Positions 2,741 through 62,800 of a DNA stretch of 64,000 nt are shown in pieces. Both the position numbers and the translations under genes were made by a program. Numbering within the stretch: the first letter of the stretch is position 1; the number at the start of each line of letters is the position of its first letter. Under the pieces are notes generated by a model that was not told where the DNA came from, did not search any database, and was given only the letters and a program-made list of their open reading frames with translations. Origin of the DNA: Escherichia coli (GTDB lineage Bacteria; Pseudomonadota; Gammaproteobacteria; Enterobacterales; Enterobacteriaceae); the NCBI RefSeq assembly GCF_044647545.1, contig NZ_CP172818.1, one strand, 5' to 3'.

Positions 2741-4245
<1,505 letters not shown>

Positions 4246-57663: not shown

Positions 57664-57827
57664 ATTCACCAGACTTAAAGCCTATCCCAGTGGGCGTAAT
57701 TGTTGCAGGCAGTTTGGACATGGACAGCGCGGAGAAACCGGAGCGTACATGTCGTACGTGAAGATTTCGAGCACTGCCCGGGGCCAAACTGGCAAATAAA
57801 ATAGCCTGATGGGATAGGCTGTTAGCA

Positions 57828-59255
57828 TTATTTCGTGTTTTTCGACGACGGTAATTCAATGCGGAAACAAACATCTTGCCCGCTCTCGTCGACCAGATAC
57901 AGTTCCCCTTGCATACGGCGAATACAATCCCTGGCAATGCTTAATCCCAGACCGCTGCCCTTCACCGCCCCTTTTCGCTGGTGGCTTCCCTGAAAAAAGG
58001 GTTCGAAGATCATGGCGCGTTCCTCTTGCGGAATGGGCGTGCCTGTATTGATGACATCAATATAAACCCGCGCACCATGTAAACTGCTGCGAAGGCAAAT
58101 GTTACCGGATTCAGCCCCGTAGTGCACCGCATTGGAGTAAAGATTATCCAGTACGCTCATCAGCAGCATTGGCTCCGCCAGGCAAGCTGTTGCTTTGAGA
58201 TCAACGTCGGTATGCATCATTTTAGCCCGTGCGGGCAGGCTATGAGCAGAAACTACTGTCTCCACCAGCGGTGCTAACTCAACATTCTCCAGTTCCACCG
58301 CACTGTCCGCTTGTTTACGGTTGTAATCAAGCAGTTGTTCGATCAGTTTTTGCAAATTGCGGCTGCTGCTATCAAGGATGCTCACCACCTCTTTTTGCTC
58401 GGGCGTAAGCGGCCCGACAACCTGGTCAGCCAGTAATTCAGTGCCCTCGCGCATACTCGCCAGCGGGGTTTTTAATTCATGAGATAAATGTCTTAAAAAT
58501 TGATGGCGTTGGGATTCCAGCCATGACAGGCGCTCACTTAACCAAAGAATACGTTGCCCAACCGAGCGTAACTCGCTCGGTCCACTGAACGAGACGCTAT
58601 TGCCCAGAGAACGCCCTTCCCCCAGCCGGTTGATCATGCGCTCGATATTTTTCACCGGCCCGATAATCATCCTCGTGAAAAGTAGCACCATCACCAGACT
58701 CACCAGAAATAGCACCAGCGATTGCCAACCAAAATATTGCCCACGTTCGGCGATTTCACGCTGAAGTTGCTGCCCACGAGAGAACACCACTGTGCGCGTG
58801 GCCTGCACCATTTCGGTATTGGCACTGGCAAAGGCTTCCAGACGCGCGGCGGCAGCAGCATCGGGACCGCTGTTGTTACACTGAAGTTGAGCCAGATTAT
58901 TCAAATCCTGACGTAATGCCTGGTAGAGTTTATCGTCCGGCAGCACGCCTGCGTGGGCATCGAGCATTTCGCTATAACGCTTGCGCTGGCTTTGATAAAC
59001 CTTCGCAAGCGTAGGGTCGTCCAGCACGCAATACTGACGGTAGCTGCGCTCCATTTCCAGTGCCGCGTTGGTCATCGCTTCACTGCGCCGGGCATCAATA
59101 AGCGTAGTGCGGTTAACCAGCGCCGCCTGATCGCTAAGCGCATTCAGGCTTTGCCAGGCTTGCCATGCCAGCACCAACAGGGGTAGCAGAATCAGCAAAA
59201 ATGCCAGCATTACCAGTTGTCGTAATGAGCGGGGAAAAACGGGCCAGCGTTTCAA
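57828..59255 (-). CDS. glrK: Sensor histidine kinase GlrK (QseE)
   Basis: Track ORF 57828..59318 extends upstream into the glmY terminator. Probable start is a TTG at 59253-59255 reading (M)KRWPVFPRSLRQLVMLAFLLILLP..., giving 475 aa; HAMP, HisKA (SHELKTPL) and HATPase domains. Confidence 0.85.
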   Translation of the reverse strand: MKRWPVFPRSLRQLVMLAFLLILLPLLVLAWQAWQSLNALSDQAALVNRTTLIDARRSEAMTNAALEMERSYRQYCVLDDPTLAKVYQSQRKRYSEMLDAHAGVLPDDKLYQALRQDLNNLAQLQCNNSGPDAAAAARLEAFASANTEMVQATRTVVFSRGQQLQREIAERGQYFGWQSLVLFLVSLVMVLLFTRMIIGPVKNIERMINRLGEGRSLGNSVSFSGPSELRSVGQRILWLSERLSWLESQRHQFLRHLSHELKTPLASMREGTELLADQVVGPLTPEQKEVVSILDSSSRNLQKLIEQLLDYNRKQADSAVELENVELAPLVETVVSAHSLPARAKMMHTDVDLKATACLAEPMLLMSVLDNLYSNAVHYGAESGNICLRSSLHGARVYIDVINTGTPIPQEERAMIFEPFFQGSHQRKGAVKGSGLGLSIARDCIRRMQGELYLVDESGQDVCFRIELPSSKNTK

Positions 59256-59311
59256 GGTGTTACTCTCGTCAGACGCGAATAGCCTGATGCTAACCGAGGG
59301 GAAGTTCAGAT

Positions 59312-59497
59312 ACAACAAAGCCGGGAATTACCCGGCTTTGTTATGGAATAAGGCGGTGCCTAACTCGACGTTTCGCCCGAGGGTTGATATAGCTACGCTG
59401 ATATCAGAAGTTGGACGGCAGGCACCTTGTTGTGCGTCATTCGAATTTTATGTAGCACGTCCCGAAGGGGCTGACATAAGTCGGTGAATGAGCCACT
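59312..59497 (-). ncRNA. glmY: GlmY small RNA (regulator of the GlmZ/glmS cascade)
   Basis: Minus strand reads AGTGGCTCATTCACCGACTTATGTCAGCCCCTTCGGGACGTGCTACATAAAATTCGAATGACG...AAAGCCGGGTAATTCCCGGCTTTGTTGT, matching GlmY as I recall it; intrinsic terminator hairpin at the 3' end. Not in the ORF track. Confidence 0.8.
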
Positions 59498-59508
59498 GGT
59501 TACTATTA

Positions 59509-59524
59509 TGCAGTAACTGTGCCA
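59509..59524 (-). promoter_or_regulatory. Sigma54 (-24/-12) promoter of glmY
   Basis: Minus strand TGGCAC-AGTTA-CTGCA (GG-N10-GC spacing), with the GC element about 13 nt upstream of the glmY 5' end. Confidence 0.7.
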
Positions 59525-59612
59525 ATAAAGAAAATAGTTTGGTAACGTACTGATTGTACGCTGTTTTGAAGGGGTTATGGCTTCTTCGCTATTTGGCTGT
59601 AAATCAGCCACT

Positions 59613-59726
59613 GTGTCGCTAAAAAGAGACAACTTAAGATAAACTTATTAGATGCCATTAAAATCAATTAGTTAAGTGTCGCCAGAAAGCGACACGGTAA
59701 ACCACCCATTGTCGTGATTTACAGAC
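59613..59726. promoter_or_regulatory. Three GlrR-type activator binding sites upstream of glmY
   Basis: Three 18-bp inverted repeats of form TGTCN10GACA: TGTCGCTAAAAAGAGACA (59613-59630), TGTCGCCAGAAAGCGACA (59676-59693), TGTCGTGATTTACAGACA (59709-59726), at about -116 to -229 from the glmY 5' end. Confidence 0.65.
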
Positions 59727-59735
59727 ACAAAAAAG

Positions 59736-59760
59736 CTCCCGAAGTTGGGAGCTTATAATA
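59736..59760 (-). terminator. Rho-independent terminator of purL
   Basis: Minus strand hairpin GCTCCCAACTTCGGGAGC followed by TTTTTTGT, about 50 nt downstream of the purL stop. Confidence 0.6.
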
Positions 59761-59811
59761 GTAGTTGGTGCTTAATGCCTCATCCGGCTGCAAAACCAAT
59801 GGGTTGACGGC

Positions 59812-62800
59812 TTACCCCAACTGCTTACGTGCATTGCGGAAAATACGCATCCACGGCCCATCCTCGCCCCAGTTTTCCGGATGCCAGGAGTTACTGACAG
59901 TACGGAAAACACGTTCCGGGTGCGGCATCATAATGGTGACTCGACCGCTTTCAGTCGTGACCGCCGTAATACCATTCGGAGAACCGTTCGGGTTAGCCGG
60001 GTATGTTTCAGTGACTTTGCCGAAGTTATCGACATAGCGCAGTGCCACCAGCCCTTTGCTTTCCAGTGCCGCCAGATGCGCCGCATCACGCACTTCCACG
60101 CGCCCTTCACCGTGAGAGACAGCAATCGGCATCTGCGAGCCCACCATCCCCTGCAACAGCAGCGACGGGCTTTGGGTTACTTCTACCAGACTGAAACGCG
60201 CTTCAAAGCGATCGGAGGTGTTACGCACAAAACGTGGCCACAACTCGCTACCAGGGATCAGTTCACGCAGATTAGACATCATCTGGCAACCGTTACATAC
60301 CCCCAGCGCCAGCGTTTGCGGACGGTGGAAGAAGGTTGCAAACTCATCGCGTACACGGTCATTGAACAGGATAGACTTCGCCCAACCTTCACCGGCACCC
60401 AGTACATCACCGTAGGAGAAACCACCGCACGCGACCAGGGCGTGGAAATCCTCCAGGCCCGTGCGTCCAGCCAGCAGGTCGCTCATATGCACGTCGATAG
60501 CATCGAAGCCTGCACGGTGGAAAGCTGCCGCCATTTCAACATGCGAGTTCACGCCCTGCTCACGCAGTACGGCAACTTTCGGACGTGCGCCAGTGGCAAT
60601 ATACGGTGCTGCCACATCTTCGTTGATATCGAACGACAGTTTCACATTCAGGCCCGGATCGGCGTCGTTTGATTTCGCCTGGTGCTCCTGGTCAGCACAC
60701 TCCGGGTTGTCACGCAGACGCTGCATCTGCCAGGTAGTTTCTGCCCACCAGACACGCAACGTGGTGCGGCTTTCGCTAAATACAGTCTGCCCGTTGGCAG
60801 TAATCACAAAATGGTCACCGGAAACCGCCTGCCCTACATAATGGACGCAATCCGCAAGCCCATGCTGCGCCAGTACGGACTCGACCGCTTCACGGTCAGC
60901 GGCACGAACCTGAATCACCGCACCCAGTTCTTCGTTAAACAACGCCGCCAGGCGATCGTCACCCAGAGAGGCGATATCTGCGTCAATGCCACAATGACCA
61001 GCAAAGGCCATTTCCGCCAGCGTTACCAGCAGGCCGCCATCAGAGCGGTCGTGATATGCCAGCAGCTTACGTTGTGCAACCAGCGCCTGAATCGCGTCAT
61101 AGAAGCCTTTCAGTTGCGCAACATCGCGTACATCTGCCGGTTTGTCGCCAAGCTGACGATAAACCTGCGCCAGCGCCGTTGCGCCCAGCGCGTTATTGCC
61201 TTTGCCCAGATCAATCAGCAGTAATGCGTTATCTTCGGTAGAAAGCTGCGGCGTGATGGTGTGACGCACATCTTCCACACGGGCAAATGCAGAAATCACC
61301 AGCGACAGCGGCGACGTCATTTCGCGCTCTTCGTTACCTTCCTGCCAGCGGGTTTTCATCGACATAGAGTCTTTACCCACCGGGATCGTCAGGCCCAGCG
61401 CCGGACAAAGTTCTTCGCCCACAGCTTTAACGGCTTCATACAGGCCCGCATCTTCACCAGGGTGGCCTGCCGCCGCCATCCAGTTGGCGGAAAGTTTAAT
61501 GCGTTTGATATCGCCAATCTGTGTTGCGGCAATATTGGTTAACGCTTCACCGACCGCCAGACGGGCAGAGGCGGCGAAATCCAGCAGCGCAACCGGCGCA
61601 CGCTCGCCAATCGCCATCGCTTCGCCGTAGTAGCTATCGAGGCTGGCGGTAGTGACCGCGCAGTTAGCGACCGGCACCTGCCACGGACCCACCATCTGAT
61701 CGCGCGCTACCATGCCGGTTACGCTGCGGTCACCAATGGTCACCAGGAAAGTTTTCTCCGCCACGGTCGGCAGGTGCAGCACGCGTTTCACCGCGTCAGC
61801 AATGGTAATCCCTTCACGAACCAGCGCATCACCCTTCGCTTTCAGCGTTTGTACTTCGCGGGTCATCTTCGGCGTTTTACCAAGCAGTACGTCCAGCGGC
61901 AGATCGATCGGCTGATTATCAAAATGACGATCGTGCAAAGAAAGATGTAATTCTTCGGTGGCCTCGCCAATCACCGCGTATGGCGCGCGCTCACGCTTAC
62001 ACAGTTCGTCAAACAGCGGTAACTGATCGGCAGCAACCGCCAGCACGTAGCGTTCCTGGGATTCGTTACACCAGATTTCCAGCGGGCTCATGCCCGGTTC
62101 GTCGCTCAGGATATCGCGCAGTTCGAATTTACCGCCGCGCCCGCCGTCGCTCACCAGTTCCGGCATGGCGTTAGAAAGACCGCCTGCGCCAACGTCGTGG
62201 ATAAACAGGATTGGGTTGGCATCACCAAGCTGCCAGCAACGGTCGATCACTTCCTGGCAGCGACGCTCCATCTCCGGGTTGTCGCGCTGTACGGAAGCAA
62301 AGTCGAGGTCCGCATCAGACTGACCAGATGCCATGGAAGACGCCGCGCCGCCGCCAAGACCGATGTTCATTGCCGGGCCGCCGAGAACGACCAGCTTCGC
62401 ACCAACGTTGATCTCGCCTTTTTGTACGTGATCGGCGCGAATGTTGCCGATCCCACCCGCCAGCATGATCGGTTTGTGATAACCGCGCAGCTCTTCGCCA
62501 TTGTGGCTGTTCACTTTTTCTTCATAAGTACGGAAGTAGCCGTTCAGTGCCGGGCGACCAAATTCGTTGTTAAACGCCGCGCCGCCCAGCGGGCCTTCGG
62601 TCATGATGTCCAGCGCGGTGACAATGCGCTCAGGCTTACCGAAATCTTCTTCCCACGGCTGTTCAAAGCCCGGAATACGCAAGTTGGATACGGAGAAACC
62701 GACCAGACCGGCTTTCGGCTTTGCGCCACGCCCGGTGGCACCTTCATCGCGGATTTCACCGCCGGAACCGGTCGCCGCGCCCGGCCACGGAGAAATCGCC

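Follow-up and report, generated by a model that had tools for sequence, protein, structure and literature searches.

TTG as the start codon of the sensor kinase gene qseE (glrK) downstream of the glmY terminator in Escherichia coli

In E. coli the gene for the sensor kinase QseE (GlrK) follows the small RNA gene glmY so closely that its reading frame remains open into the glmY terminator. The locus thus poses two questions, namely at which codon translation of the kinase begins and whether its mRNA arises from a promoter of its own or from transcripts that run through the terminator. From annotation, comparison of related genomes and published transcript data, qseE is very probably translated from the TTG at 59255-59253 into a 475-aa membrane sensor kinase, with an mRNA that comes from its own weak sigma-70 promoter. 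The start assignment as such is strongly supported by the existing annotation, the comparative signature and published start-site mapping taken together.

The kinase gene and its annotated start codon

The E. coli genes glmY–qseE(glrK)–qseG–qseF were located on the minus strand at 57.8-59.8 kb of the window (the whole 64-kb stretch of DNA that was analysed), downstream of purL. A 461-nt query spanning the start region was run against complete E. coli genomes and found a match of at least 95% identity in 5425 of 5426. The window DNA at this locus was 100% identical to that of E. coli FDAARGOS_497, and the annotation of the 100%-identical strain lists purL, qseE, qseG and glrR as neighbours. The kinase encoded here is the QseE/GlrK sensor histidine kinase: it was 100% identical to NCBI QseE/GlrK entries in a protein comparison, it showed the Pfam architecture HAMP (PF00672), HisKA (PF00512) and HATPase_c (PF02518), and its gene lies in the order glmY-qseE-qseG-qseF. 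The arrangement does not differ substantively from that of E. coli K-12, which has the same glmY, terminator, sigma-70 promoter, 25-nt leader and qseE-qseG-qseF genes.

The coding sequence occupies 57828-59255 on the minus strand (475 aa plus stop), as defined by the open reading frame, RefSeq and the 100% protein identity. Read from TTG 59255-59253, the frame closes at the stop codon 57830-57828 and measures 1428 nt, corresponding to 475 aa. The RefSeq coding sequence of qseE (WP_001297612.1, locus positions 2806-4233) converts to 59255-57828 of the window and starts exactly at 59255. The same numbering is used by the Goerke laboratory. In the supplement of PMC6075780, a primer named "qseE +1 to +45" begins with ttgAAACGCTGGCCC, and primer BG1390 places qseE +1 at the T of ttgAAACGCTGG. 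For glrK/qseE of E. coli K-12 (yfhK, b2556), RefSeq and the Goerke laboratory accordingly give the same TTG and the same 475-aa product. The first-pass annotation, made from the sequence alone, had arrived at this TTG and a 475-aa kinase as well, and RefSeq, the Goerke laboratory numbering and a comparison of 79 species all bear it out. Its N-terminus, (M)KRWPVFPRS, can be read directly from the minus strand, where the TTG is followed by AAA CGC TGG CCC GTT TTT CCC CGC TCA. The TTG start is already the standard annotation and is not a new result. No entry for glrK, qseE, yfhK or b2556 was found in the searchable supplementary data of the Ribo-RET, TRAINSPOTTER and INRI-seq papers.

Deposited versions of the kinase carry N-termini of at least four kinds, with total lengths of 460-463 aa (start at Met16), 475-478 aa (TTG/GTG), 497 aa (TTG in the terminator) and 513-538 aa. 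Variants of this sort include P0003, P0013, P0014, P0015, P0054 and P0087, the long forms being translations of the glmY terminator and even of part of glmY. The versions of 460, 475, 497 and 538 aa coexist because the start is placed differently by different gene callers.

At the other end of the gene, the spacer between qseE and qseG (57670-57827, 160 nt) contains nested inverted repeats with arms at 57674-57689/57810-57825 and 57710-57730/57771-57791. It matched 9632 places in 5425 genomes, with a median of two places per E. coli genome, and therefore has the appearance of a palindromic intergenic repeat of low copy number. No second copy was present in the 64-kb window, and the only Rfam hit was sX9, below threshold with 32 bits against 44.

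Conservation of the start region among Enterobacteriaceae

The first-pass annotation had named an alignment of GlrK N-termini as a means of checking the start. For this comparison the orthologous locus was collected from 80 species-representative Enterobacteriaceae genomes, 79 of which were usable. A start codon was present at the position aligned to 59255-59253 in every one of them (TTG in 73 species, GTG in 6 and ATG in none). Bases 2 and 3 of this codon were invariant, and neither CTN codons nor TTA occurred as synonyms, unlike at nearby ordinary leucine codons downstream, which switch freely between CTN and TTR. The position of the codon also coincides with the onset of codon periodicity. 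Over codons 2-25 the mean column entropy was 0.47, 0.13 and 1.13 bits for the first, second and third codon positions, compared with a flat 1.43, 1.49 and 1.40 bits over the 45 nt upstream of the TTG. Because entropy is periodic from the TTG on and flat before it, this codon marks exactly where coding constraint sets in, and residues 2-15 are subject to it.

Upstream of the start, in-frame stop codons were found at distances of 4 to 130 codons that varied by species, and 32 of the 79 species had no in-frame upstream start at all. A U-tract of the glmY terminator was recognisable in 66 loci; the TTG within it was in frame and open in 23 of these, and out of frame or separated by a stop in the other 43. 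In most species the upstream extension is not preserved as an open reading frame. A representative search at 50% identity put all Enterobacterales orthologues in one cluster, and two extra loci were reached via fragmentary proteins. Both have TTG at the aligned position, and in one of them, which belongs to a clearly more distant Enterobacterales genome, the spacing GAGA-N8-TTG is the same. At the start codon, the contrast between T-to-A changes (0 lineages) and T-to-G changes (4 lineages) was considered as a sign of selection against ATG and was rejected, the numbers being too small.

In the leader, 7 nt separate the TTG from a preceding Shine-Dalgarno-like GAGAG (59263-59267, minus strand; -12 to -8), which was recognized by its conservation and its pairing with the anti-Shine-Dalgarno sequence. 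The GAGA at -12 to -9 was 81-95% conserved among the 79 species and forms the sole conserved block of an otherwise variable leader. The duplex energy with the 16S tail before the TTG was -3.4 kcal/mol in E. coli, with a mean of -3.7 kcal/mol over the species, so the Shine-Dalgarno sequence of qseE is only moderate and not strong. The 5' end of the mRNA (59280-59196, 85 nt) showed no unusual structure (fold z = +0.6), and on this ground a structured leader controlling the TTG was dropped as a candidate.

In seven loci (L064, L067, L070, L073, L075, L077 and L079), which belong to Buttiauxella, Dryocola, Cedecea and one Enterobacter-labelled genome, the GAGAG is changed to GAGATG or GAGATA. Where it reads GAGATG (L064, L067, L073, L075 and L079), and also at L082:1201-1212, an in-frame ATG is created three codons before the conserved TTG. 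Such an ATG was seen in Buttiauxella, Cedecea, Dryocola and a few others, including one distant Enterobacterales genome. For Cedecea and Dryocola the NCBI annotation starts at this ATG (MKLLNQW...). In species other than E. coli, the exact start may therefore vary by a few codons, with a possible shift of three codons in these genera.

The glmY terminator and the qseEGF promoter

The small RNA gene upstream of qseE is glmY. A full-length match to Rfam RF00128 was obtained at 59497-59350 with 145 bits (gathering score 33) and an E value of 4e-34, covering model positions 1-163, and an intrinsic terminator comes directly after the match. According to PMC4152352, GlmY is made as an RNA of 184 nt and processed to 148 nt. 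From +1 at 59497 and the length of 184 nt, the 3' end was calculated as 59314, and the gene thus covers 59314-59497 on the minus strand (processed form about 148 nt). The terminator (59312-59344, minus strand) was defined by RNA folding as a 14-bp hairpin with the GC core GCCGGG/CCCGGC and the U-tract UUUGUUGUAU. The fold of the 121-nt region had z = -4.8, and the U-rich run follows and overlaps the hairpin. The hairpin is retained across genera with compensatory changes in the alignment, e.g. GGCAGGG/CCCTGCC.

An in-frame TAA in the terminator loop (59328-59330, minus strand) closes the qseE frame upstream, in agreement with the limit of the open reading frame. Between this stop and the kinase gene, the U-tract holds two consecutive in-frame TTG codons (59313-59318, minus strand; 59318-59316 and 59315-59313). 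The first-pass annotation had placed an in-frame ATG at 59316-59318, within the glmY terminator, and had described the longer open reading frame as ATG-initiated. The location was right, because the hairpin at 59344-59312 includes the codon in its 3' arm/U-tract. The codon itself, however, is TTG (CAA on the plus strand), and the 496-aa reading frame begins with this TTG, which the ORF tool prints as 'M'. With TTG at 59318-59316 and the in-frame TAA at 59330-59328, the frame contains no ATG at all on the upstream side of 59255. Neither of the TTG codons in the U-tract is a real start.

In the 64-kb window the motif TGTC-N10-GACA has only three exact copies, at 59614-59631, 59677-59694 and 59710-59727, all of them 117-230 bp upstream of the glmY +1. 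They agree with the binding sites that have been published for the activator GlrR/QseF at the glmY sigma-54 promoter (PMC4152352). Just past the purL stop codon and upstream of this control region, a canonical intrinsic terminator was noted at 59733-59754 on the minus strand, formed by AAGCTCCCAACTTCGGGAGCTT followed by TTTTTG.

For qseEGF a sigma-70 promoter has been reported whose start site precedes the TTG by 25 nt (PMC6075780, citing Reichenbach et al. 2009). By our coordinate conversion, this start site corresponds to the A at 59280 (minus strand) and leaves a 5' UTR of 25 nt. From the published start site and its conservation, the hexamer TAGCAT at 59287-59292 (minus strand; -12 to -7) was assigned as the -10 element. 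It is found in 60 of the 79 species, in most cases at a distance of 30-33 nt ahead of the start codon. The putative -35 hexamer, deduced from the start site and the -10 element, is TTGTAT at 59310-59315 (minus strand), which leaves a spacer of 17 bp and overlaps the U-tract of glmY; TTGTAT at a spacing of 17-18 bp was found in 34 of the 79 species. A promoter scan of 59000-59850 returned no sigma-70 site, which, given the threshold of the scan, is not evidence of absence, and the site was missed because TTGTAT matches a -35 consensus at only 3 of 6 positions.

Very probably, the mRNA is driven by this weak sigma-70 promoter, which is squeezed between the glmY terminator and qseE. Its putative -35 element overlaps the terminator U-tract, its -10 element TAGCAT lies at 59292-59287, and transcription begins at 59280. 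This gives a leader of 25 nt in which the GAGAG Shine-Dalgarno sequence precedes the TTG by 7 nt. The weakness of both promoter and start codon, combined with a modest Shine-Dalgarno sequence, fits the very low level reported for the kinase. According to the account in PMC6075780, global proteomics gave 11 molecules of QseG and 36 of QseF per cell while QseE went undetected, and QseE signals are weak.

Alternative starts and the origin of the mRNA

Translation could also be imagined to begin at the first in-frame ATG, codon 16 (59208-59210, minus strand), which is given by the sequence and starts the 460-aa versions among the database entries. The kinase would then have 460 aa, and the TTG would be no more than an internal leucine codon of an untranslated leader. 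ATG is the strongest start codon, and several automatic gene callers choose Met16 (the 460-463-aa entries P0003-P0006 and P0087). However, codons 2-15 are under purifying selection with wobble at the third position and hence are translated. Codon 16 is not ATG in 18 of the 79 species, where ACG, ACA, ATC, ATT, GTG or GTT takes its place, and in 12 of the 79 no ATG occurs within 40 codons. There is next to no pairing with the anti-Shine-Dalgarno sequence ahead of codon 16 (mean -0.8 kcal/mol), and by its sequence the shorter form would drop the positive tail of K2, R3, R9 and R12 ahead of the first membrane helix. A start at Met16 is therefore very improbable. Still less credible, with a probability close to nil, is a start at the terminator TTG 59318-59316, which would give a 496-aa protein including LYLNFPSVSIRLFASDESNT and would need glmY-qseE read-through transcripts. 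This frame is the longest open reading frame, and equivalents of 497 and even 538 aa have been deposited for some Citrobacter genomes, e.g. C. rodentium ICC168 (P0015). The codon, however, forms part of the 3' arm/U-tract of a stable hairpin, and the published start site lies downstream of it (PMC6075780). In the 79-species alignment there is no codon periodicity between 59318 and 59255, and in most species the 496-aa frame is interrupted or out of register. The extensions of Citrobacter and Escherichia resemble each other (…FPSVSI…) because conserved promoter DNA, CTCAGTTAGCAT, has been translated. As the -35 hexamer falls at 59315-59310, the terminator TTG is more plausible as part of the promoter than as a start codon. 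Both TTG codons of the U-tract are absent from the mRNA that begins at 59280, so that the 496-aa frame is a longest-frame artefact.

Even if translation starts at TTG 59255, qseE might be expressed mainly by read-through of the glmY terminator, in which case glmY-qseEGF would act as one operon and the two-component system would regulate itself through the glmY sigma-54 promoter; the first-pass annotation had likewise considered that glrK translation may depend on such read-through. Only 58 nt separate the 3' end of glmY from the TTG, and since the E. coli U-tract UUUGUUGUAU is interrupted by G and A, some leakage is plausible. Proteus mirabilis shares the order glmY-qseE-qseG-qseF with E. coli, again with glmY immediately before the kinase gene, and in this species RT-PCR and reporter assays point to co-transcription of glmY with qseEGF, no promoter of its own being found for qseEGF (PMC8745638). 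Here, RT-PCR joins glmY to qseF and glmY is reported to lack a terminator, whereas E. coli has both the terminator and a separate qseE promoter, and the Proteus paper itself sets its co-transcription against the situation in E. coli. For E. coli K-12, the reporter data described in PMC6075780 (Goepel and Goerke, PLoS Genet 2018) contradict read-through. The lacZ fusions from -70 to +107 and from -480 to +107, the former lacking the glmY promoter and the latter with the whole glmY locus, had indistinguishable low activities, and neither was changed by deletion of qseF or qseG. Earlier RT-PCR in E. coli, as cited in that paper (Reichenbach et al. 2009), had shown read-through from the glmY promoter to be virtually absent. 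Independent transcription of qseEGF is also stated by the same group in PMC4152352 and one further paper. The EHEC papers draw glmY apart from a qseEGFglnB operon, and no report of glmY-qseE co-transcription was found in the EHEC literature that we checked. In addition, the conserved -10 box stands at the correct distance from the start codon, so that the operon does not lack a promoter of its own as a read-through operon would. That most qseE mRNA arises by read-through is thus very improbable; the idea fits Proteus and is contradicted for E. coli under the conditions that were studied, and the dependence on read-through suggested for glrK did not hold.

For E. coli, the comparative signature identifies the 475-aa form with the TTG start as the correct one, and the main value of the result lies in the quality of annotation. 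With a qseE promoter separate from glmY, the tempting model of a kinase that regulates itself via read-through from a small RNA under its own control is removed. Our reading thus leaves the current understanding of the QseE/QseF-GlmY system unchanged. The gene resembles other bacterial genes with conserved non-ATG (TTG/GTG) starts in that it combines a weak start codon with a Shine-Dalgarno sequence throughout the family and encodes a protein of very low abundance; compared with that class, selection of the TTG for low expression is in the case of qseE something that we infer. The weak start may have been selected to keep QseE scarce. A further-reaching version, which we regard as speculative and on balance unlikely, is that retention of TTG reflects active selection holding QseE far below QseG and QseF, and that the overlap of the -35 element with the U-tract could let heavy glmY transcription occlude the qseE promoter. 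If this were true, promoter occlusion by glmY transcription would constitute a feedback for which the conditions studied to date have given no sign. What remains of mild interest for the family is the weak TTG/GTG start that is found throughout it, together with a -35 element that would overlap the terminator of a small RNA.
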